A stretch of 55,360 bases of DNA from Oscillospiraceae bacterium (GCA_017828855.1 JAFZZV010000081.1:1-55360), one strand, 5' to 3'; positions 7,086 through 52,116 are shown, counted from the first letter of the stretch. Numbers and translations are program-made. The notes: a model not told the origin generated them from the letters alone.

Positions 7086-7889
7086 TCAGTGACGGTGTCC
7101 CGGACCACCGCCCTTATTGTTGCCGGGGCCGCGATGGCTGCCGGCACTCCCGGGATCCCTTCCGCTTCCGGCCCCGCCCGGCTTTTTCCGCGCATTTGCG
7201 ACACCGGGGCCAAGTCCGCTGATCCTGCCGCGGTTTCCCGGACCGGTCTCCATCATCGGAGCTCTGTATATAGGTGCGGGCTTTCGAATCGTGCGCCTTG
7301 GAGCGACAGGTTTCGGACTGATGTAAGGCCTGAAGTATCTTTTATGCACCGGTACATGAGGTCTGTAACTGATCCGGAACAGTCTTTCCAGCAGCGACGG
7401 CCTTTTATATCTGCGGTAGGATGTGATACGGTTCGCGACAGTGAGTGCGCTTATGACCGCTGCTGCTCCCGCAAGCAGTTTGCCCGCGCCGTCAAAAACA
7501 GATGAAGTAGCTCCCCCCGTGAGGTCGACGTACTGATCCTGCTTGTCCGTGATCGACACTTCCATCCCGTATTCGGTGAACATCTGTGCCACAGTGGTCG
7601 CTTCCTGCGAGGTCAGGTTCTCTCCGACCACCACAGGGACCATGCTAACAAGATTTGAGGATTCTTCATCGGTATACCCGAAGACATCCTCCAGAAGATC
7701 GCCGGCAGTCACCCTGTCGCATGTACCTGTCGATACCAGAACCAGATTGTAGACGTTTGTTGATCTTGCCGCGGAAGACGCCTTGTTCAGAAGGGATATC
7801 GAAGGCGTAGCATTCTGAAGGCGTGATCCGCAGTAAGGACAGAAATTGGTCTGTTCTGTAAGTTCAGCGCCGCAGTTACCGCAATACAT
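7086..7889 (-). CDS. Zinc-ribbon protein with an L7/L12-C-terminal-like domain, one TM segment and a Gly/Pro/Arg-rich tail
   Basis: The ATG at 7889 has a GGAGGAGAAATAAAC RBS. The N-terminus is MYCGNCGAELTEQTNFCPYCG. Residues about 45-115 (VLVSTGTCDRV...LTSQEATTVAQMFTEYGMEVSI) resemble the L7/L12 CTD pattern. A hydrophobic stretch is LLAGAAAVISALTV. The tail is rich in G/P/R. Confidence 0.7.
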   Translation of the reverse strand: MYCGNCGAELTEQTNFCPYCGSRLQNATPSISLLNKASSAARSTNVYNLVLVSTGTCDRVTAGDLLEDVFGYTDEESSNLVSMVPVVVGENLTSQEATTVAQMFTEYGMEVSITDKQDQYVDLTGGATSSVFDGAGKLLAGAAAVISALTVANRITSYRRYKRPSLLERLFRISYRPHVPVHKRYFRPYISPKPVAPRRTIRKPAPIYRAPMMETGPGNRGRISGLGPGVANARKKPGGAGSGRDPGSAGSHRGPGNNKGGGPGHRH

Positions 7890-36468: not shown

Positions 36469-36491
36469 CAGGAAACAGATTGGTGAATAAC

Positions 36492-37733
36492 ATGGAAAAA
36501 TGGAAAGCAGAAAAACTCGCCCGTGCGCTGGTAGAAGTCGGCGTAAATATCCAGGAAGGAGAGACTCTTCTCCTTCTCAGCGATATCGAGGCACGCGATC
36601 TTGCCAGAGAAGTCGTTGCCGCTGCATTCGCCCGCGGGGCGGCTGACGCTGAGATCATGTGGACCGACCAGATCTCCGAACATCTGAGGGCGCTCTACGG
36701 CACTCCGGACAGACTGAAGGTGATGCCTGAATGGAAAAAGGAAGGCATGGATTCTCTCCTCGGAACAGGCAGTACAGTCCGGATGAGCATCTTCGGGTCA
36801 TACCCTACCCTTAACAGGGATGTACCCGATGAGAACCTGATGGCACTGTCCGAAGCCGGAAACGATCTGCAGAACGTCGCGAGGAAATACGTTCACAGAG
36901 CAGTCCTGAAATGGACCGGAACGGTATTCCCGACAATGGACTGGGCAAGATCCGTCTTTCCGGAGTACGACGACGGGGAGGCATATGCAAGGCTGGAGGA
37001 CGCCATATGCAGGATGATGCACATTGACGAGTTCAGCGATCCGGTCAAGAACTGGAAAGACCACTGCAGAGAACTGGCCGATCGCTCCGCGAAGCTGAAC
37101 TCATATGATTTCAGCAAACTGCACCTTATGAGCGAACTGGGAACCGATCTCTGGATCGGGCTGGTCGAGGGCCACATCTGGCTGTCCGCAGGAGAGATGG
37201 GTGCCGAGAATGTGAACGCTCCGTATGTCGCCAATATGCCGACCGAAGAGGTGTTCACCGCACCTGATTTCAGGTCTGTTGAAGGCATCGCATATGCCTC
37301 TTTCCCTCTTTTCATCAACGGGAAGCTGGTCAGGGACTTTTCAATAACCTTCAGGAACGGCAGAGCCGTCGACTGCTCCGCAAGCGAGGGCCTGGATTTC
37401 CTTAAAGCAGCCCTGTTCCGGGACGAAAATACGAGGCGGCTCGGAGAAGTTGCGCTTGTTTCCAAGCGCTCTCCTATAAGACAGATGGGAAGGATCTTCT
37501 ACAACGGGATGATAGACGAGAACGCCGCCTGCCATCTTGCATTCGGGACGTCGTTTCCCGATTGCGTGAAGGGCGGAACACTGATGTCGGAGGAGGAACT
37601 GTTTGACATAGGAGTCAATCACGCGGTAAGTCATAACGACTTCATGGTCGGGACCGATGACATGACAGTCATCGGGATCACTCATGGCGGCACTGAAGTC
37701 ACTGTCATGGAACACGGCGACTTTGTCCTCTGA
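36492..37733 (+). CDS. Aminopeptidase, family M29 (AmpS/PepS-like)
   Basis: KLARALVEVGVNIQEGETLLL...., PTEEVFTAP, EVALV and HLAFG are M29 motifs. The start is ATG 36492 or TTG 36480. Confidence 0.85.
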   Translation: MEKWKAEKLARALVEVGVNIQEGETLLLLSDIEARDLAREVVAAAFARGAADAEIMWTDQISEHLRALYGTPDRLKVMPEWKKEGMDSLLGTGSTVRMSIFGSYPTLNRDVPDENLMALSEAGNDLQNVARKYVHRAVLKWTGTVFPTMDWARSVFPEYDDGEAYARLEDAICRMMHIDEFSDPVKNWKDHCRELADRSAKLNSYDFSKLHLMSELGTDLWIGLVEGHIWLSAGEMGAENVNAPYVANMPTEEVFTAPDFRSVEGIAYASFPLFINGKLVRDFSITFRNGRAVDCSASEGLDFLKAALFRDENTRRLGEVALVSKRSPIRQMGRIFYNGMIDENAACHLAFGTSFPDCVKGGTLMSEEELFDIGVNHAVSHNDFMVGTDDMTVIGITHGGTEVTVMEHGDFVL

Positions 37734-41621: not shown

Positions 41622-42734
41622 TTAGAAGACAGATCTCAGGAGGATGATGTTTCCCTGTCTTCCGTTGGCTACTATCACCGCGCCGAACGCATAACTGTCG
41701 CTTTCGTCGCAGCAGAACGACCCTATGACCATGATCAGTCCGTTCTGCTCGTCACTGAAAGTAACCTCGTCCTCACGCACAGCTCCTATGAAAGTCGAAT
41801 ACCCTATCTCTTCGCTGGAGATCGGCCACTTCTCGCTCTCATTCATACCCATGGAAGGATACAGATCCATCGTCGTACCGAACTGTCCGAACGAGATCGC
41901 ACATGTCCCCAGCTCATAATATGTCAGGTCTTCGTTCTCGAAGATCATCATGTACTTCCACTGACCTTCCGACTCATACGGGGCAAGCTGCAGAAGGCTG
42001 CTCGGTACACCGTGGTCAAGATAGTACCTGGCTGCCTCAAAGTCGCTCACGGAGACAGGACCGGGATCGTTCCAGTTCCCTCCGCTCTGCGTGCCGCTGC
42101 TGCCGTTAGATGAACCCTGATTCCCGCTGCTCGATGACCCTTGGTTCCCGCTGCCTGAGGAGCCCTGAGAGCCTTGATTTCCGCTGTTCGAAGATCCCTG
42201 TGAACCCTGATTGCCATTGTTTGAGTTGTTTGAGGGCCCCTGGCTGCCCTGATCTCCCCCGTCGGGCGTTCCCTGCGATCCCTGGCTGCCGCTGTTTGAA
42301 GAGCCCTGGTCTCCGTTGTTTCCGTTGTTTCCAAACAGTCCCTCCGGCCACGTAAAGGTAGGCGAGCCGCTGCTGCCGTTGTCAGGATCGCTGAATTCCG
42401 TTCCGAACTTGCTGTCTATAAACTCCAGCACTTTGACCTTCACCAATGGAAAGGCATAATATGCGATCGCGGCAACAAGCGCCAGCACTATGATCTTCTT
42501 CAGGAATCCCCCGCCGCTTCTGTTCTTTGCAACCGGCTGGGTGTTCATCCTGACTTGGTTGGAGCGCTCAGGCATCACCTGATACTGCATCTGCGGCTGA
42601 TATGTCTGCTGGTTCGTATAGACCTGTTGCTGCATTGATGGTTGTACCGGTACCGCGTTCTGGACCCTGGCACCGCATTTAGGGCAGAATACCGCATCAT
42701 CCGGTATCTGCGCTCCGCATTTGGAACAGTACAT
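41622..42734 (-). CDS. Zinc-ribbon / single-TM protein with a Gly-Ser-Asn-Gln repeat linker and an unknown C-terminal domain
   Basis: The ATG at 42734 follows AAGGAGACAGAG. The N-terminus is MYCSKCGAQIPDDAVFCPKCG, followed by a Q-rich linker and a TM segment IIVLALVAAIAYYAF. Then come about 85 aa of GNQGSQGSS-type repeats and a 150-aa globular C-terminus. Confidence 0.75.
   Translation of the reverse strand: MYCSKCGAQIPDDAVFCPKCGARVQNAVPVQPSMQQQVYTNQQTYQPQMQYQVMPERSNQVRMNTQPVAKNRSGGGFLKKIIVLALVAAIAYYAFPLVKVKVLEFIDSKFGTEFSDPDNGSSGSPTFTWPEGLFGNNGNNGDQGSSNSGSQGSQGTPDGGDQGSQGPSNNSNNGNQGSQGSSNSGNQGSQGSSGSGNQGSSSSGNQGSSNGSSGTQSGGNWNDPGPVSVSDFEAARYYLDHGVPSSLLQLAPYESEGQWKYMMIFENEDLTYYELGTCAISFGQFGTTMDLYPSMGMNESEKWPISSEEIGYSTFIGAVREDEVTFSDEQNGLIMVIGSFCCDESDSYAFGAVIVANGRQGNIILLRSVF
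42075..42332 (-). repeat. Imperfect in-frame tandem repeat encoding (G-N-Q-G-S-Q-G-S-S-x-S)n
   Basis: The peptide reads GNQGSQGSSNSGNQGSQGSSGSGNQGSSSSGNQGSSNGSSG. The DNA shows recurring ggttcccgct / gattcccgct / gatttccgct units. Confidence 0.8.
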
Positions 42735-44296: not shown

Positions 44297-44320
44297 AAGC
44301 CGCCCCTTCCGGGGCGGCTT
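44297..44320. terminator. Bidirectional terminator hairpin
   Basis: aagccgcccc-ttcc-ggggcggctt between convergent genes. The T-run gttttt lies 5 nt downstream. Confidence 0.75.
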
Positions 44321-44336: not shown

Positions 44337-45944
44337 TCAGTTGACTGCCGATCCGCATTCAGGGCAGAAAGTACCGTGAACGACGGCTCCGCAGTTGGGA
44401 CAGATCCTGCCTGAACCGGGAGACTTCGTCTCGGAGATGCTCTTGTCCTTTGGCCAGGACACCTTGTAGGACAGTTCCCTGGTGATCGTCTCGCCCGCAG
44501 GAACGGTGACCGTTCCCGTGACGATCCCGGTCTTGTCGTCCTTCTCCATCCCGGACAGTTCTTTGACCTCGACCGTGATGTCCTTCTCGCGAGAGACCGG
44601 TATCTGATCCTTGATCTCTACGGACATTTCAGCTGCGGAAACATTCGTAACTTTCGTCTCGAACACATGATCCACTGTCCGCAGACCTTTGAGGAACGCG
44701 TTGGATGCTTTCCTCGAAACTTCTTTTCTGGTGACCTTTATCCGTTCCTCTTCTCCGAGAGTTATGACGATCTCTTCCTTTGTCAGATCCGGATCCACAG
44801 TGACTGTACCCAGGTATTTGCCTCTGAGGAATACTCCTGCAGCTACCGATGTGCTGAACGGGATATCCTCAGTTTTTACTTTTGCTGTCAGGAACGCTCT
44901 GGGATCAGCGGAAGGTGCCGCGGATACGACATATTCCGCCGGCACCTGGCTGCTCTGCAGATCTGCGACGGTGCCGTCATAGTTATCCAGGACATCTCTT
45001 TTCCCGGGGATGACATATTCTGTCATCGTATCGTCATCGCTGACCTCGGCCTCTTCCATCGTTATCCTGACAGGGGCTGCTGCTGCCATCGCCGCACCCA
45101 TCGCCATCGGCGCAGCGTCTTCCATGGCCTCATAGGCACGATCGACCATCATGTCCATTGATGCCGCCTTTGCCGCCATGCGCATGGATGACCTCATCAC
45201 GTTGGCTGTGCGGAAATCGAGATAGACCGGTGTCAGTTCCGGGAGCGTGCTTCCGGCTGCAGGGTTTCCGGTATAAAGGCTGATCGAAACGCCGTTCCAG
45301 TCCTCGCCTGTGTGCTCCGTGATCTTTGCACGCATGCGGACCTCCATGGGACCTTCTCCGTCAGTGTAGAGCTCGTAGACAGGACGCCACTCGGCGCTGT
45401 TGTCAAAGTATCTCAGTTCAAACGGATACGTTCCCGCCTTTTCCGCGGTTATATCAGCAACGACAGCCGGCAGCTGTTCCTTTTTAATTGCCTTCTCTTT
45501 TTCTTTTGCAAGCTGTTCTGTTTTCTTTCTTCCTTCCAGAATCTGACCGTACAGTTTTTCTATCCTCTCGGGCAGTTTATCGATATACTCCTGGATCTCG
45601 GAAGCGGTCTGTGCCGAGCGGTTCGTGAAATCCCCGTTGGACTGCCACATCTCTATCTGCATCTCTCTGATGCCGATCTGCCTCTCGATCTCATCTATCT
45701 GTTTCTGAATGATATCGGATTCCTTTTCCTCCAGATGCTCCCCGTAAGTCTCGAACCTCTGATTGGAGCACTTTATGCCCTCGCTGCTGAACAGACGGAC
45801 CGTATCTGTCCTGGAACTTCCCGTAAGTCCGAGAACATACAGTTTCTGTGTTCCTTCAGACAGCTCGACTGTTCCTCTTCGTACGACTTCCGCTCCTCTG
45901 CGATAGATGCTTACGCTGTCCACCGCCGTTGTTAGGACGTTCAT
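44337..45944 (-). CDS. DUF4140/DUF4139 (MuiA-like) family protein with a C-terminal zinc ribbon
   Basis: 535 aa. The N-terminus is VSIYRRGAEVVRRGTVELSEGTQKLYVLGLT....DTVRL, followed by a coiled coil. The DUF4139 hallmark is AEWRPVYELY...ITEHTGEDWNGVSISLYTGNP. The C-terminus is CPNCGAVVHGTFCPECG. The RBS is GGAGGTAAAACA-ATG. Confidence 0.85.
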   Translation of the reverse strand: MNVLTTAVDSVSIYRRGAEVVRRGTVELSEGTQKLYVLGLTGSSRTDTVRLFSSEGIKCSNQRFETYGEHLEEKESDIIQKQIDEIERQIGIREMQIEMWQSNGDFTNRSAQTASEIQEYIDKLPERIEKLYGQILEGRKKTEQLAKEKEKAIKKEQLPAVVADITAEKAGTYPFELRYFDNSAEWRPVYELYTDGEGPMEVRMRAKITEHTGEDWNGVSISLYTGNPAAGSTLPELTPVYLDFRTANVMRSSMRMAAKAASMDMMVDRAYEAMEDAAPMAMGAAMAAAAPVRITMEEAEVSDDDTMTEYVIPGKRDVLDNYDGTVADLQSSQVPAEYVVSAAPSADPRAFLTAKVKTEDIPFSTSVAAGVFLRGKYLGTVTVDPDLTKEEIVITLGEEERIKVTRKEVSRKASNAFLKGLRTVDHVFETKVTNVSAAEMSVEIKDQIPVSREKDITVEVKELSGMEKDDKTGIVTGTVTVPAGETITRELSYKVSWPKDKSISETKSPGSGRICPNCGAVVHGTFCPECGSAVN

Positions 45945-46039
45945 TGTTTTACCTCCAGATCTGAATAATTGGTTATTTGTGTTTTGAAAAGTATCGTGTT
46001 TACTCTGCCGTTCCCGGTATTTCTCATAACTGTTCCCGT

Positions 46040-47431
46040 TCAGCTCAGATATCTGACGCCGTATTTGCTCGTCAGGGCACTGTCGGAGAAAACAAGCCAG
46101 TTGTCCCTGTCATCAGTATAACCTACGACATTGTTCCTGTTCCCGTTCGGATCCACCGTATCAAGCACCTCTACCTTACCGTACGAGAACTTCATATTGT
46201 ATGTCAGATCCCCTCTGGTATGCCTGATGTCTCCATTGTAATGGCCGTCATATAAGGTACCGGAAAGTACCGCCGTAGGAGGATTTTCCGGCCCGTTGCC
46301 GTAATCCGTCTCTCTGAACGCACCTCTCGGATCGTTCGCTGTCCAATCCGTCTCGAAGAATTCATATGACCTGTTTGCAGTGCCCGCTCCCGAGATGAAG
46401 AACGTCCTGGCGTGCCCTTCCTTGATACGTTCAGAAACGAATTCTCCGATGTAGACCTGCGCATTGTTCTTTCCGTCTATGTTGAACTCAACACCTGCAG
46501 TTCCGTCTCCGTCAAGGACTCTGACAGGTATCATCCCTCCGTTTTCCCTGTATTCCGTCAATACAGGATAGGCTTCTTCCAGCGAACTGAAGACAGCTGC
46601 ATATTCCGTATCGGGGTTCGCTGTCCTGATCCGTTCCGCAATGACCGAAAGCCTTTCGTAAAGGTCCCTCAGGTGATATGCGGTCTGCGTCTCCGCTCTT
46701 ATCCGGTCGGTGCTCTCTGCCGGGAGCTCTGAAGAAGCGACAGCTATCAGCTCCTCCACTTCTCTCTCGGTCCCCTGTTCGACCAGATACATCGCCCACG
46801 CTTTATAGGACGCTTCGAGCACGTCTTTGTTTTCTTCCAGTGCTTCGGGCTTGATATCTGCGAGGATCCTCGCCTCCCTTACACTGTCCACGAATCTTCC
46901 TTCCGAGGATGCAGCCTGAGCGCGTTCCTTTACTATCGCATACATATCATCTATGTTCATCAGGGCTTCTTCTGAATCAGGATGAATGTCAAGTGCCTTG
47001 TAGTAGGATTCCGATGCGGATGAGTAATTCCCTATCTGATATGCCTCGCGGGCTTTCTTCATGTATCTTTTGAATCTGCTCTCCGGCAGGTTTCTGTACA
47101 CGAACACCCCGCCGATGATAAAGACCATCGCGGCTATGATCGCGACCAGCGTCTTCCTGTATCCGCTCTGTCTGTCGGGCACCCGGGGATCCGTGCTGAT
47201 CCTCTCTCCGATCGGCTTCACCTGGTCACCCGGTGCGGGCTCATGTGCCGTGCCGCCCTCAGGCACAACGCTGACCGGAAGATGTTCAGCTGCTTCAAGC
47301 CGGGTATCGAGATCGTTTTCGGGCTCTGCAGAGGCATTCTCCTGCGCGAGCTCGTGATCAACGGATCTGCCGCAGTTCGGGCAGATCTCGGATCCTTCAG
47401 GGATCATACGACCGCAGTCAGGACACAACAT
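46040..47431 (-). CDS. Zinc-ribbon / TM / TPR-like / beta-repeat membrane protein, paralog A
   Basis: 463 aa with the N-terminus MLCPDCGRMIPEGSEICPNCG and a TM segment LVAIIAAMVFIIGGVFVY. The helical module has YYKALDIHPDSEEAL, ARILADIKPE and YKAWAMYL. The C-terminus has VYIGEF...NVVGYTDD. The RBS is GGAGGGTTTGATCG-ATG, 15 nt after the stop of paralog B. Confidence 0.8.
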   Translation of the reverse strand: MLCPDCGRMIPEGSEICPNCGRSVDHELAQENASAEPENDLDTRLEAAEHLPVSVVPEGGTAHEPAPGDQVKPIGERISTDPRVPDRQSGYRKTLVAIIAAMVFIIGGVFVYRNLPESRFKRYMKKAREAYQIGNYSSASESYYKALDIHPDSEEALMNIDDMYAIVKERAQAASSEGRFVDSVREARILADIKPEALEENKDVLEASYKAWAMYLVEQGTEREVEELIAVASSELPAESTDRIRAETQTAYHLRDLYERLSVIAERIRTANPDTEYAAVFSSLEEAYPVLTEYRENGGMIPVRVLDGDGTAGVEFNIDGKNNAQVYIGEFVSERIKEGHARTFFISGAGTANRSYEFFETDWTANDPRGAFRETDYGNGPENPPTAVLSGTLYDGHYNGDIRHTRGDLTYNMKFSYGKVEVLDTVDPNGNRNNVVGYTDDRDNWLVFSDSALTSKYGVRYLS

Positions 47432-47446
47432 CGATCAAACCCTCCG

Positions 47447-49816
47447 CTAATTATCCTTATACACAGCTGCAAACGGCAGGCTCGAGCCCAGCAGCGCCCC
47501 TTCATCCTCAAGGCAGATGCACCATTTCTCGTCGCTGGTGTATCCTATCACATTCGATCTTCCGTCCGGGCCTGTCTCATCGATCACGACAGCTTTTCCT
47601 CCCGCGTAATCGGCATAGAACGTTTTATCGTCATCGGAAGAGATGATAGTCCTTCCCTCATACAGCCCGGCTTTGAGCAGTCCTTCCACACGAAGGTTCA
47701 TGCCCGTTCCGTATACTTTTGCTGAAAAAGCTCCGGATGGAGCATCATCCGTCCACACACATGTGTAATACCATCCGTCCCCTTCATTCGCACCGGAGGT
47801 CAGGATCACATATGAATCAGCAGTACCGATCCTGTTCCCGCCGCTGTTGAATTCCCCGATATACAGCTGCAGGACACGCCCTCCGTCATAATAGAACCCC
47901 GCCTGCCTTCCCAGCAGATCCGAACCTGTCCTGACAGGGAACGTTCCTCCCGCCGCTGCATACTCCGAGATCTCTCCGGACATGCTTGCGAGGATCTCCA
48001 GAACGGCTTCTGTGTCTTCCTGCATATTCAGTTCAAGACATCTCTCCCCCTTCTCGGTGAAGAACTCTGCAAATCTGTATCTTGCACGCGCGTCCTCGGA
48101 GCGCGTGACCACGTTTCTGTAGGCGTCCCGGTCAAGTTCTCTTGAAGCCTGATCCAGCACCAGGCCGAGATCGTTCTCGTCTCCGCTCATAGCAGCTGCG
48201 GCCGCCCAGGAAGAATAGACTTCCTCCAGAAGCTGTGCGATATCTTCCTCTCTGGACGGATGTACCTTCCTCAGTATCCCGATCTGACTGACTGCTTCCT
48301 TGAATTTGGCCTTTTGTGTGTATTCCCTGACAAGGCCGTTCGTTTCGACCCAGTACAGGTCCAGCCTTTCCGATGCCATCGGTGAGTCGGGTATTATCTC
48401 AAGCGCAAGATTGTATTCTTCGGCCGCCTCGGATATATCTCCCTTTCTGTCTGCATCCTCAGCCTTCCGCATATGCCGTCTATATATGTTCTCGGGACGC
48501 GTGAGGTAATACAGGAGGAAAACGGCTACAGCTGCTGCAGCGGCGGCGAATGTCAGAATGATGCGCTTCCAGTTCCTCTCGTCATCCTTCTTCTCTGAGC
48601 TGTTCCCGTCTTCAATGATAGGTTTGCCGGGTTCGGTGTGAGGCATCGCGATGGTATCCTCTGTAACACCGGACAGCGCTGTTTCTCCGCTGTCCTCAGA
48701 GATGCTCACTATGTCTTCCGGAAGCGGCAGGATCTCCGTATCCCGGACAATGCCTTCCGGATCGCTGTCCGCAGTATCCTTCTCTCCGGCCTCCATCATT
48801 GCAAGTTCCAGAGCATTGAAGTCCTCAATTCCTTCTGCCGCATGTGCGTCTTCTGCCGTAGCGTCTCCGGCACTTACTGTCTGTATCTGTATCTCTTCAT
48901 CCGCAGGAACGGGAATAAGCGGAATATCCGTTTCCTTCTCATCCGGAGCCTCAGTCAGCTCCGGTGCATCCGGAACGACGCTCTCTGTCTCACTGTTCGC
49001 AGCCGTATCTGTTTCCGATATCAACGCCTGCTCGGCGGTCTCCGGCAGAGAAATGCTTTCCGGCAGGTCAGATGAACTCTTCTGCAGAGATGATCCGTCT
49101 GCAGTCAGCAGATCATCCTCGCCTTCCCATTCGGAAAAAAGCCCGAGTATGCTCTCTACCGCTTCAGTCAGTTCGGATCCGGTGTAATCGTATCCGGTAT
49201 CCGTGTCGGAAACTGCCGGAGCCTCAGGCAACTGCAGATCCGCATCCTGAAGGAGAGATCCGCTGTCGGCATCGGCAGACAATTCGGTAAGCGGAAGTAT
49301 CTCTTCTCTCTCCTCAGTATCATTACCCTCAGCTGTCCGCGCCGGCTCAGAGCCGTTATCCGATGTCTCTTCAGACTGAAGGAACGGCGGGATCGTATCG
49401 GTGGCAGCTTCAGTTTCTGTCAATTCAGTCTGGATACCGGCTGCTGTTTCGGACAGATCAAACATATCCACATCAGGCAGGAATCCGCCCTCCGCTCCGT
49501 CCGCTGCAATGATATCCAGGATCGCATAGACACCGCTCATATCAGTGAGCGGATCCGGATCCCTGTCCGACTCGTCGGATTGAAGAGGTTCCTGTTCGAT
49601 CTCAGGCAGTTCGCCTGCATTGCCTGCGTCCGGATCCGGGTATGTGCCGTCATCAGCGATGGGCTGCAGGTCTTCACCTGCAGGACTCATCACTTCATCT
49701 TCTGTTTTGCCGGGGAATTCCGTATCCCATTCGGGAATGATGACCTTGGTCCCGCATCTGTAGCAGAAACCGGCATCTTCCGGGATCCTCGCACCGCAGT
49801 GCGAACAGAACAGCAT
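47447..49816 (-). CDS. Zinc-ribbon / long acidic linker / TM / TPR-like / beta-repeat membrane protein, paralog B
   Basis: 789 aa with the N-terminus MLFCSHCGARIPEDAGFCYRCG and an about 390-aa D/E/T/S/P-rich linker. The TM segment is ILTFAAAAAAVAVFLLYYL. Conserved motifs include YNLALEIIPDSPMA, YSSWAAAA, LYIGEF and NVIGYTSD. The RBS is AGGAGGAAAGCGCCG-ATG. Confidence 0.8.
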   Translation of the reverse strand: MLFCSHCGARIPEDAGFCYRCGTKVIIPEWDTEFPGKTEDEVMSPAGEDLQPIADDGTYPDPDAGNAGELPEIEQEPLQSDESDRDPDPLTDMSGVYAILDIIAADGAEGGFLPDVDMFDLSETAAGIQTELTETEAATDTIPPFLQSEETSDNGSEPARTAEGNDTEEREEILPLTELSADADSGSLLQDADLQLPEAPAVSDTDTGYDYTGSELTEAVESILGLFSEWEGEDDLLTADGSSLQKSSSDLPESISLPETAEQALISETDTAANSETESVVPDAPELTEAPDEKETDIPLIPVPADEEIQIQTVSAGDATAEDAHAAEGIEDFNALELAMMEAGEKDTADSDPEGIVRDTEILPLPEDIVSISEDSGETALSGVTEDTIAMPHTEPGKPIIEDGNSSEKKDDERNWKRIILTFAAAAAAVAVFLLYYLTRPENIYRRHMRKAEDADRKGDISEAAEEYNLALEIIPDSPMASERLDLYWVETNGLVREYTQKAKFKEAVSQIGILRKVHPSREEDIAQLLEEVYSSWAAAAAMSGDENDLGLVLDQASRELDRDAYRNVVTRSEDARARYRFAEFFTEKGERCLELNMQEDTEAVLEILASMSGEISEYAAAGGTFPVRTGSDLLGRQAGFYYDGGRVLQLYIGEFNSGGNRIGTADSYVILTSGANEGDGWYYTCVWTDDAPSGAFSAKVYGTGMNLRVEGLLKAGLYEGRTIISSDDDKTFYADYAGGKAVVIDETGPDGRSNVIGYTSDEKWCICLEDEGALLGSSLPFAAVYKDN

Positions 49817-49862
49817 CGGCGCTTTCCTCCTGTCCAGAGCGCTATGTGAACAGTTTCGTTCT

Positions 49863-51248
49863 TCAGTAAATATATATGAACGGGACTCCCAGTTGTCCGC
49901 TGACAGCCGAGTCCGAGAAAGAGATCATCTTTGTATTGTCCTTATTGTATCCCACTACGTTGGCGTCCGGTCCGTTATCCGAGAGTATCTTTACCCTGCC
50001 TTTGCTGTAGGTGATGAAGTAAGTCTCCCCGTCCCTGAACAGTTCCTCCGTCTCTCCGTCCCATAGCCCGTCGATCAGATCTCCCTTTATCACTATATCG
50101 TCGGATGAGTCGGATACATCGGCTCCCAGTTCATGATATACGCATGGGCCGTTCGGCCTGCCCTGCTCCCAGCCGCATGTATAACAGAAGAGAAACTGCC
50201 CGTCCTCTCCGAACAGTTCTGCATAGTACGCAGTCGCAGTCCCTTCAGGTCTTCCCTCTTCATCTATGCTTCCGACTACCAGCTGACAGTCTGACATATA
50301 GCGGTAAAACGCAAGCGCTGTTTCCGATCCTTCCGGCGCATATCGGAACGGTACAGATCCGCCGAGATCCACGAACTCCGCGAACTTTTCAGAAAATGAC
50401 GACATCTTTTCAAAGACCGCAGAGACCTCTTCATCAGCACTCAGAAGGATCAGTTCTTCCGAGTCAGTCCGGAGTTCCTTTAGTACTGCAAAATACCTCA
50501 GCGTATCCACGACGCTTTGCCTGATATCAATGATCTCGCTTTCGGACAGTTCTTCCGACGCAGATGAAAGGAGTTTTTCCACACCGTCCGGATCGTCATT
50601 TCCCGCCAGATCAGAAGCCCATTCCTTGTATATTACCGTAAGCGCGGAATGGTTCATGGTCTCCCTTTCCGGATCTATCTGCGGAAGGATCCTTGCCCTC
50701 TCCAGAGCTTCTTCGAATTTCCCGCTGTCCACGAGGTCCATGACCGCGGTGACCTCTTCGCTCCAGATCGTGTACAGCCTGTTCTGGGCTTCAAGAAGAT
50801 CAGGAATTATCTCAAGAACTGCCCTGTAATCGGATGCAGCCTCAACGATCTCGGAAGCTGCCAGGTGTGTTTCAGCGCTTCTCATCAGGCGCTCCGCGCG
50901 GTTCTTCGGGAGGCTGTACCAATACCAGTATCCCCCTGCCCCGATGATACAAAGAACCAGAAATGCCGCTATCACGGCTGCCACCGCCCTTGGTCCCTTT
51001 CCCCTTTTTTCTTCTGCGGTATCGGGGACTGAGACAGTCTCGCCCGGTCCGTGCCACTCGCCTGTGTTTTCAGGCGGCAGGACCGGTACAGGCAGCTGTA
51101 CCGATGCACCCTCCTCTGTTTTCGGGTTCAGATCCCGATTGGAGAGTTCTCCGGCCGTCACATCGCTTTCACAGGAAACAGGCGCTCCGCATTCATCGCA
51201 GACCGGCGCGTTCTCTTCAAGTTCTTTTCCACATCTGCTGCAGCGCAT
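49863..51248 (-). CDS. Zinc-ribbon / TM / TPR-like / beta-repeat membrane protein, paralog C
   Basis: The ATG at 51248 lies 6 nt after AAGGAG; the ORF-track TTG at 51263 is less likely. The N-terminus is MRCSRCGKELEENAPVCDECG and the TM segment is VAAVIAAFLVLCIIGAGGYWYW. Conserved motifs include YRAVLEIIPDLLEA, ARILPQIDPE, YKEWASDL and NVVGYNKD. Confidence 0.8.
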   Translation of the reverse strand: MRCSRCGKELEENAPVCDECGAPVSCESDVTAGELSNRDLNPKTEEGASVQLPVPVLPPENTGEWHGPGETVSVPDTAEEKRGKGPRAVAAVIAAFLVLCIIGAGGYWYWYSLPKNRAERLMRSAETHLAASEIVEAASDYRAVLEIIPDLLEAQNRLYTIWSEEVTAVMDLVDSGKFEEALERARILPQIDPERETMNHSALTVIYKEWASDLAGNDDPDGVEKLLSSASEELSESEIIDIRQSVVDTLRYFAVLKELRTDSEELILLSADEEVSAVFEKMSSFSEKFAEFVDLGGSVPFRYAPEGSETALAFYRYMSDCQLVVGSIDEEGRPEGTATAYYAELFGEDGQFLFCYTCGWEQGRPNGPCVYHELGADVSDSSDDIVIKGDLIDGLWDGETEELFRDGETYFITYSKGRVKILSDNGPDANVVGYNKDNTKMISFSDSAVSGQLGVPFIYIY

Positions 51249-51384
51249 GCCCTGCTCCTTCAAGTAGTTTTCCCTTCTATTAGTATAGATTATATATCAA
51301 GGCAGTCAGTGTTTTACCATGTTTTTCTTGTACGGGGCACTGTTTTCGACTAGAATCAGACATGTCTGCGTTTGGAGGGACTAA

Positions 51385-52116
51385 ATGGAAAGCAAACTTA
51401 CAAAAGCCATAAGGATCAGTCCCAGCATGTGTGACAGCAGCGGCAGGCTGGGCATTCCGGATACCGCTTCCCTTTTCATGGACATCGCTGCTGAGCATTC
51501 CGACAGGCTCGGGATAGGTCAGATCAAACTCAAATCAGAGGGAGGATTCTGGCTGACGATAAAGACTATTATGCGGTTCTACCGGAAGCCGGGATTCAGC
51601 GAGGAAGCTGAACTGTCAACATGGCCGGAGTATCCGGAGAAGCGCAGGTGCTACCGTGACTATCTCCTTTCAGGAACGGATGGCCCTCTTGCCGCCGGAA
51701 AAACGGAATGGGGGATCCTGGACATGGACACCGGAAGGCTCAGGCATCTGGATTCCATCTATCCCGCAGGTCTCGAACTGTCAGATATCTCCGCCCTGTC
51801 CGATGAGTTCGTCCGCTTTGACGAAGATATGTCCGCCGATGATATTCTCGGCACCTTCATCGTCAGATCCACTGATATAGATCTGGGGAACCACATGAAC
51901 AACGTCGCCTACATCAGAGCTTTTGCCTCTCTGTTCTCATCATCAGACTGGAACAGGATGGATATCAAGTTTATCGAGATCTGGTACCGCTCACAGTCAT
52001 TAGAAGGAGATGTCATTACCGCCCGGAAGAGAGAACGCGGTGACTGCAGCGAAGTCTCGTTTTTCAAGGAAGACGGGACCTGTACAGCGCAGATAAGATA
52101 CAGATGCGGAAGCTGA
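51385..52116 (+). CDS. Acyl-ACP thioesterase-family protein
   Basis: 243 aa with a double hot-dog layout. The first repeat is CDSSGRLGIPDTASLFMDIAAEHSD...GFWLTIK. The second is IVRSTDIDLGNHMNNVAYIRAF. The RBS is GGAGGGACTAA-ATG. Confidence 0.8.
   Translation: MESKLTKAIRISPSMCDSSGRLGIPDTASLFMDIAAEHSDRLGIGQIKLKSEGGFWLTIKTIMRFYRKPGFSEEAELSTWPEYPEKRRCYRDYLLSGTDGPLAAGKTEWGILDMDTGRLRHLDSIYPAGLELSDISALSDEFVRFDEDMSADDILGTFIVRSTDIDLGNHMNNVAYIRAFASLFSSSDWNRMDIKFIEIWYRSQSLEGDVITARKRERGDCSEVSFFKEDGTCTAQIRYRCGS

Follow-up and report, generated by a model that had tools for sequence, protein, structure and literature searches.

Among the described proteins closest to those considered here are the TcaA/YvbJ-type envelope proteins of Bacillota (NF053815), which consist of an N-terminal Zn_Ribbon_1 domain, one transmembrane (TM) helix and a large C-terminal extracytoplasmic domain, and have no enzyme domain. 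TcaA itself is described as a protein with a zinc-ribbon domain, and its gene is part of the tcaRAB operon (PMC10611510). A second point of comparison is MuiA, which takes its name from an alginate phenotype of Pseudomonas aeruginosa and has been tied to an envelope-stress extracytoplasmic function (ECF) sigma regulon (PMC10418997); a literature search found no functional work on DUF4139, the domain that characterizes this family. Features of both are found side by side in a gene cluster of a rumen Oscillospiraceae bacterium (GCA_017828855.1, JAFZZV010000081.1:1-55360; the whole stretch of 55,360 nucleotides (nt) is referred to as the window). Four same-strand open reading frames (ORFs), D, A, B and C, lie there within 44337-51248 on the minus strand: C, B and A encode ribbon-bearing membrane proteins related to one another, and D encodes a MuiA-family protein with a ribbon of its own. 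The reading that we consider best supported, with a probability of about one half, is that the cluster encodes, in a tandem array that is diversifying, surface proteins with a binding and not an enzymatic role, and that D has been appended to this array as an independent module in the lineage. The genes are kept together in one narrow lineage only, so the paralogs and D are probably not a fixed four-part machine.

A sequence-only reading of the window had proposed that the four ribbons belong to a membrane-associated complex. Synteny in related genomes, the test set beforehand for this proposal, was found, as judged from the gene neighbourhoods of the related loci (labelled L001, L002 and so on): the cluster recurs with three paralogs adjacent to D in L001, L002, L005 and L091, with two in L006, L089 and L090, and with at least two in L003, where the downstream flank differs. 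Paralog A is missing from the L006/L089 lineage. The genome nearest to the window is L005, an Oscillospiraceae metagenome-assembled genome (MAG) from sheep duodenum, in which the whole region is collinear, with genes for an M23 peptidase, a carboxylesterase and an acyl-ACP thioesterase on one side of the cluster and genes for an aldo-keto reductase, an alpha/beta hydrolase and transporters on the other. Paralogs adjoin D only where D is at least 61% identical, that is, in one rumen Oscillospiraceae lineage represented by nine loci including the window. Since the flanks are collinear in most of these genomes, shared ancestry suffices to explain the adjacency, and in the gene neighbourhoods compared the locus does not behave as a conserved multi-gene system beyond local synteny. 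A dedicated four-ribbon complex was not supported by this comparison, given that adjacency is confined to one lineage, that the components occur apart, and that the ribbon has been lost in some members.

The separation of the components is seen in both directions. No A/B/C-type gene was found near ribbon-tagged D homologs of 55% identity or less in about 15 loci with readable flanks, and the neighbours of distant D homologs are unrelated and variable, including PMI/PGM, peptidase, acetyltransferase, SRAP, LURP-one-related (LOR) and nuclease genes. The paralog family, for its part, is found without D as single copies adjoining metal-homeostasis genes (L004, L085 and L094), as a pair of ribbon proteins with no DUF4139 gene in L086, and as three tandem genes (807, 566 and 420 amino acids (aa)) with no DUF4139 gene in L092 (261-6007), where the next gene is convergent. 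With paralogs free of D and D free of paralogs, the two components are separable, and their adjacency is a trait of a single lineage. The size of the paralog family was taken from an exhaustive profile search of a library of 50%-identity representatives, in which 59 representatives reached an E value of 1e-30 or lower and, among the best 150 matches, about 70 cover the ectodomain; a word-indexed search with A or with an ectodomain profile finds five to eight relatives and greatly understates the family. Phage and plasmid collections searched by tblastn held no relatives of the cluster.

Several of these neighbourhoods have features of their own. In L004 (2969-6337) and L085 (2179-5502) the A-like member is convergent to genes for a DtxR-like repressor, an HMA P-type ATPase and a CsoR-like repressor, an arrangement found in two samples that probably represent closely related organisms. 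In other lineages the neighbours of ribbon-tagged D (a 135-aa protein, LOR, SRAP, a nuclease and sugar-metabolism genes) proved to be local to each lineage, and the search for a recurrent partner was abandoned. The first of these, a protein of 135-139 aa without a Pfam match, is encoded directly downstream of the D homolog in L017 (11609-12016), L020 (11530-11937) and L046 (532-951), loci of another Clostridia lineage between which it is 74-96% identical. An LOR gene follows D in L016 and L025, and an SRAP peptidase gene is divergent from D in L009 and L010. A Peptidase_M29 gene lies 2-8 kb from the DUF4139 gene in the window (36480-37733, plus strand), in L013 (6254-7507) and in L087 (1240-2475); this proximity, across Oscillospiraceae, Erysipelotrichaceae and the L087 lineage, may be a remnant of ancient synteny or a coincidence.

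Within conserved synteny, the four genes stand out as an island of rapid divergence. Between the window and L005 the flanking proteins are 82-98% identical, as against 73% for D, 52% for A, 42% for B and 52% for C, and against L006, which lacks A, the contrast between cluster and flanks is sharper still. The paralogs also vary in number, two or three, among close relatives. Two pairs of loci served as controls. In the Oscillospiraceae pair L009 and L010, which has no paralogs nearby, D is 57% identical and its flanks about 89%, and in the Erysipelotrichaceae pair L013 and L021, D is 81% identical with flanks of 80-95%, so is not fast there. Since D evolves fast in the paralog-free L009 and L010, its rate is independent of adjoining A-C genes. 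The island resembles surface-variation or arms-race loci and is in that respect a reasonable target for study in rumen Oscillospiraceae. The acyl-ACP thioesterase gene next door (51385-52116) is also somewhat diverged, at 69%.

In pairwise BLASTP, A, B and C are 28-29% identical to one another along about 380-480 aa, which is the length that follows the linker, with E values of 8e-35, 1e-39 and 9e-35; by this measure the similarity is far beyond chance and the three are true paralogs. That they follow one blueprint, as the sequence-only reading had held, is borne out by these alignments, by the scores of their ribbons and by a structural model of A: each has an N-terminal ribbon, an acidic linker, one predicted TM helix, TPR-like helices and a C-terminal beta-repeat rich in glycine and aromatic residues. 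The ribbons exceed the 25-bit gathering threshold of the Pfam model Zn_Ribbon_1 (PF13240), with 25.7 bits in A, 30.7 in B and 26.3 in C, and their four cysteines are invariant across the paralog alignments. Nothing else in A, B or C passes a Pfam threshold, matches to TPR models remaining below theirs, and NCBIfam places none of the three in a family. In A (46040-47431, 463 aa) the ribbon spans C3-C20 (47372-47425) and is followed by disordered residues 26-91, a TM helix at residues 92-114 (47090-47158), a modelled TPR-like solenoid of nine helices at residues 116-296 (46544-47086) and a modelled MORN-like beta-hairpin domain at about residues 300-463 (46043-46534). In B (47447-49816, 789 aa) the ribbon spans C4-C21 (49754-49807) and is separated by an acidic, disordered linker of about 390 aa from a TM helix at about residues 417-437 (48506-48568); in C (49863-51248, 461 aa counted from the ATG) the ribbon spans C3-C20 (51189-51242), and an acidic linker leads to a TM helix at about residues 88-111 (50916-50987). 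Both continue into a TPR-like and MORN-like ectodomain. All of these features lie on the minus strand.

The linkers are about 68, 64 and 390 aa long in the three paralogs, the TM helix starting at about residue 92 in A, 88 in C and 417 in B. Linker length is hypervariable, as seen in B, where the roughly 390 aa of the window compare with about 750 aa in a B ortholog; no tandem DNA repeats were found in the B linker, so repeats do not explain it. The linker before the helix is acidic in the family, with a mean of 24.5% aspartate plus glutamate. In 48 family members the mean number of lysines plus arginines flanking the TM helix is 4.8 on the N-terminal side and 2.3 on the C-terminal side; the N-terminal side is the richer in 43 of the 48 and the C-terminal side in none. 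Short motifs are shared within the beta-repeat, QVYIGEF in A and QLYIGEF in B, and NVVGYTDD in A, NVIGYTSD in B and NVVGYNKD in C. One helical motif, ARIL..I.PE, had been ascribed to all three paralogs; it is present in A and C, and B reads IGILRKVHPS instead.

The C ortholog of L001 (5149-6507) and L005 (3732-5090) has lost its ribbon, the degenerate N-terminus reading MRSDIYDKK...VCGAP with a single cysteine left, and is otherwise intact. About one third of the paralog-family clusters listed have no ribbon, and to judge from these sequences the ribbon is dispensable in the family. Proteins of the Zn_Ribbon_1-plus-TM type number five in the 55-kb window, A, B and C together with two that are unrelated to the cluster, which makes four consecutive ribbons less remarkable than at first sight. 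In this organism, membrane proteins commonly carry such a ribbon as a cytoplasmic "handle", and its presence is not evidence for a dedicated four-ribbon complex. One of the two unrelated proteins is encoded at 41622-42734 on the minus strand (ORF to 42788), has 370 aa from MYCSKCG, and contains a long low-complexity stretch of Gly, Ser, Asn and Gln and a C-terminal domain without a Pfam match. This gene is missing from the otherwise collinear L001 and L005, in which the alpha/beta hydrolase and aldo-keto reductase genes are immediate neighbours; it therefore appears to be an insertion specific to one lineage, two genes away from the cluster. The other (7086-7889, minus strand, 267 aa) carries an N-terminal Zn_Ribbon_1 and is distant from the cluster.

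With TcaA the paralogs have in common the chassis of N-terminal Zn_Ribbon_1, single TM helix, large C-terminal extracytoplasmic domain and no enzyme domain. They are not members of the TcaA family: where the cut-off is 550 bits, A reaches 14.6, all of it within residues 3-55, where the ribbon lies, and B and C give no match. The ectodomain of TcaA is unrelated to theirs, and the long acidic tether and the tandem paralogy are features of the paralogs and not of TcaA. The ribbon-anchored envelope-protein chassis is known, and it is the ectodomain family that had not been described.

The AlphaFold2 model of A (mean predicted local distance difference test (pLDDT) score 83, above 90 in the ectodomain) shows a small ribbon, disorder over residues 26-91, a long TM helix, nine paired helices and an antiparallel array of beta-hairpins over residues 300-450. 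In Foldseek searches of the PDB its top matches are the radial-spoke chains 7jtk_S (probability 1.00) and 8j07_A (0.97), which we take to be MORN-repeat radial-spoke proteins; further matches, with probabilities of 0.8-1.0, are the TPR domains of RapH, KLC1, HOP and Sec72. When single sequences are compared with Pfam, the TPR matches stay below threshold (TPR_11, 17.9 against 26.8 bits). The family profile aligns with consensus TPR proteins over its positions of about 211-250, directly after the TM helix, with E values down to 2e-47 that arise from repeated matching of one repeat. Taken together, profile and predicted fold place the helical module among the TPR domains, with one canonical repeat and the remainder TPR-like; designed CTPR proteins and the TPR part of kinesin light chain are among the closest known repeat proteins.

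The evidence that the beta domain is MORN-like comes from several directions, which agree with one another and are sub-threshold at the sequence level. Three motifs of the domain, YxGxxxxxxRxGxG, WxxDxPNGxF and GxLxDGxYxGxI, echo the MORN consensus YEGEWxNGKxHGYG (PMC8612252). PF02493 (MORN) weakly matches three of 14 family members, the best with an E value of 0.0024, below threshold, and in a sequence search of the PDB five of the nine weak matches (E < 10) of the family are MORN proteins, the best being MORN4 with an E value of 0.039; the Foldseek matches point the same way. The paralogs differ from MORN4 and the radial-spoke proteins in that their domain is predicted to be extracytoplasmic and is fused to a TPR solenoid and a ribbon anchor, and a literature search found no description of a bacterial zinc-ribbon/MORN architecture of this kind. 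The ectodomains carry no catalytic signature, and neither enzyme nor defence signatures were found in A-D with Pfam, NCBIfam and PADLOC, in agreement with the earlier statement that no enzyme motif is visible in any of the four proteins. Apart from the ribbon, no Pfam or NCBIfam model covers this family, which is a succession of ribbon, acidic tether, TM helix, TPR solenoid and MORN-like sheet.

The product of gene D (44337-45944, minus strand, 535 aa) passes all three curated cut-offs and is, by these profile scores, a full-length member of the MuiA family: it scores 199.5 bits against TIGR02231 of NCBIfam (cut-off 112.6), 152.1 bits against DUF4139 (PF13598, cut-off 31.8) and 35.7 bits against DUF4140 (PF13600, cut-off 27), and contains the DUF4139 hallmark TGEDWNGVSISLYTGNP. 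Its model (mean pLDDT 80) has a DUF4140 beta domain at residues 1-66, an antiparallel coiled-coil hairpin at residues 75-156 and DUF4139 beta-sandwiches at residues 159-224 and 300-498. No TM helix or signal-like hydrophobic N-terminus was found in D. The description of D as a DUF4140-DUF4139 protein with a coiled coil and no TM helix was accordingly confirmed by the domain scores and the model. These domains are those of the MuiA/DUF4139 family in general, from which D differs in having no signal peptide or membrane anchor and in bearing its own C-terminal ribbon and a methionine-rich loop. Since D has no hydrophobic N-terminus, its compartment may differ from that of P. aeruginosa MuiA.

The C-terminal ribbon of D (CxxC-x8-CxxC, C515-C530, 44355-44402) had been described as CPNCG-x8-CPECG. 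A terminal ribbon is indeed present; the spacing was misread, as the tail is CPNC-GAVVHGTF-CPEC, with seven residues between CPNCG and CPECG. It scores 15.6 bits against Zn_Ribbon_1, below the 25-bit threshold, and its four cysteines are invariant in 31 aligned homologs. About 75 of 120 retrieved clusters of D homologs have a C-terminal ribbon, the versions without it being about 500 aa long, and ribbon-tagged homologs are found in MAGs of Oscillospiraceae, Erysipelotrichaceae, Solobacterium and Lachnospiraceae. A disordered loop rich in methionine and alanine occupies about residues 230-292 in the model; over about residues 244-296 (45057-45212) the methionine content is 19%, as against 1.9% in the remaining protein. 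The enrichment is kept across 120 DUF4139 homologs from Bacillota, with means of 17% in those with the ribbon and 14% in those without. Possible roles for such a loop are the binding of hydrophobic peptides, the binding of Cu(I), or service as an oxidation sink. Ribbon and methionine loop are typical of a large subfamily of uncharacterised MuiA/DUF4139 proteins in Oscillospiraceae, Erysipelotrichaceae and Lachnospiraceae, which can now be recognised. Foldseek of D against the PDB gave weak matches, to ribophorin I (E 1.8e-4, TM-score 0.13) and to AP2 mu-homology domains, and functional inference from them was dropped. Against BFVD it returned only uncharacterised DUF4139-like proteins of giant viruses, with E values down to 1e-14; the viruses are Tupanvirus, Pithovirus, Pandoravirus and Orpheovirus, and one of the proteins is annotated DUF4139.

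If the cluster is read as a tandem array of surface binding proteins, the ribbon of each paralog would lie in the cytoplasm and be joined by an acidic, disordered tether of very variable length to the single membrane helix, and outside the cell a rigid TPR-like solenoid would be capped by a divergent MORN-type beta-sheet. At the cell surface the ectodomains would bind or scaffold other molecules without enzymatic activity, the candidates being envelope polymers, other surface proteins and external ligands; duplication, copy-number change and rapid divergence point to diversified binding specificity. D, whose gene closes the array on its 3' side, would be a cytoplasmic protein of beta-sandwiches and a coiled coil; it may work together with the paralogs without being an obligatory partner. 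A number of points weigh against this reading. The same-strand, tight spacing with no terminator before D is kept in every genome of the lineage, including L003, and this persistence leaves room for a real functional coupling. D evolves faster than its flanks in the window lineage too. Elsewhere, two unrelated ribbon proteins follow the D homolog in L027, and in L020 a ribbon-plus-helix protein is encoded two genes upstream of a ribbon-less D homolog; an enrichment of N-terminal ribbon genes near D was considered, and these two independent extra cases are too few for statistics. The orientation of the paralogs as single-pass proteins with the N-terminus inside and the C-terminus outside is a prediction from the charge bias and the lack of a signal peptide, and a ligand-binding role of the ectodomains is suggested by their fold class only. 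The cluster is as yet no demonstrated system, and by itself it opens no long-standing question.

The most direct alternative is that the three tethered ribbons and the ribbon of D assemble into one membrane complex, in which the ectodomains sense or bind different ligands and share D as their partner or effector in the cytoplasm. The operon-like spacing with no internal terminator would fit such a complex, as would the order of paralogs followed by D, shared by about eight loci of the lineage, among them L003, whose downstream flank differs, the faster divergence of all four genes relative to their flanks, and the place of P. aeruginosa MuiA in an envelope-stress ECF sigma regulon (PMC10418997). 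It is nevertheless unlikely: co-occurrence fails in both directions outside the one lineage, the C ortholog of L001 and L005 has lost its ribbon while D retains its own, about a third of the listed family clusters are ribbon-less, the D ribbon is of a different subtype (x8 spacer, 15.6 against 25 bits), and D is equally fast in L009 and L010, where no paralogs adjoin it. A broader form of the same idea, which we put forward as a conjecture with little chance of being right, would make ribbon-tagged DUF4139 proteins the cytoplasmic partners of ribbon-anchored surface proteins in a new, rapidly diversifying transmembrane module of gut Bacillota for envelope surveillance or for phage or neighbour recognition. 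In such a module the TPR-MORN heads would engage variable ligands and be linked through ribbons and acidic tethers to a DUF4139 scaffold, whose conserved methionine-rich loop could grip hydrophobic or metal ligands; if true, this would give DUF4139 its first mechanistic context.

The pattern of divergence also invites the suggestion that the paralogs are phage receptors or decoys, or an envelope anti-phage or inter-bacterial system, diversified under selection by antagonists and with D as a cytoplasmic component. An island at 42-73% identity amid flanks at 82-98%, a copy number that changes between close relatives and a linker of about 390 aa in one B ortholog and about 750 aa in another are what an arms race might leave behind, and yet fast divergence is equally expected of any surface protein under relaxed constraint. 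PADLOC-DB 2.0 returned no match for A, B or C and, for D, only coiled-coil-level matches to LmuB (E 0.0017) and PbeC (E 0.025); Pfam and NCBIfam show no nuclease, NTPase or other effector domain; and the absence of relatives in the phage and plasmid collections, the lack of flanking mobile-element genes and the uniform GC content speak against it as well, so that we judge an arms-race module to be quite improbable. A cytoplasmic zinc-binding domain, one TM helix and an extracytoplasmic sensor make up a layout resembling that of single-pass signalling proteins, and on this model the cytoplasmic ribbon and acidic tail could sequester a regulator, or else D, at the membrane for as long as the ectodomain has no signal bound. 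The ECF sigma regulon of Pseudomonas that includes MuiA would agree with such anti-sigma or sequestration signalling (PMC10418997). Neither in the window nor at any orthologous locus, however, does the cluster contain or adjoin a gene for a sigma or transcription factor; the ribbon has been lost in some members, and it is of the Zn_Ribbon_1 type and not the HxxxCxxC zinc-binding anti-sigma motif; we regard signalling of this kind as very improbable.

The transcription signals of the locus agree with an operon-like layout, and the claim to this effect held in its particulars: the gaps are 46 nt between C and B, 15 nt between B and A and 95 nt between A and D, a GGAGG-type ribosome-binding site (RBS) precedes each gene (GAAGGAG for C, AGGAGG for B, GGAGG for A and for D), and no terminator-like site was found in the three gaps. 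The 95-nt gap folds no better than shuffled sequence (z = +0.64), and D is probably co-transcribed with the array in this lineage. An in-frame TTG at 51263 is an unlikely start for C because it overlaps the RBS of that gene. A scan of the whole window against Rfam gave zero matches, no mobile-element genes flank the cluster, and the GC content is even across the window.

At its 3' end the cluster had been said to be bounded by a hairpin. A strong GC-rich hairpin does lie at 44297-44320, between D and the aldo-keto reductase gene, whose 3' ends face each other. It has 12 bp, counting the A-U and U-A pairs that flank it, and the 86 nt around it fold with -36.9 kcal/mol (z = -6). A T-run accompanies it on the plus strand only, and the operon strand continues with GCAGTATAAAGG. 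The hairpin terminates the convergent aldo-keto reductase gene on the plus strand; as a boundary of the cluster it would, lacking a T-run on the operon strand, be at best a bidirectional terminator without a U-tract. At the other end, the 136-nt intergenic region 51249-51384 between C and the divergent acyl-ACP thioesterase gene is the likely promoter region of the cluster on the minus strand, where consensus scanning and reading of the sequence identified a sigma-70-like candidate, CTGACT-16 nt-TATACT at 51309-51282, that matches the consensus and has a TATAAT just upstream.

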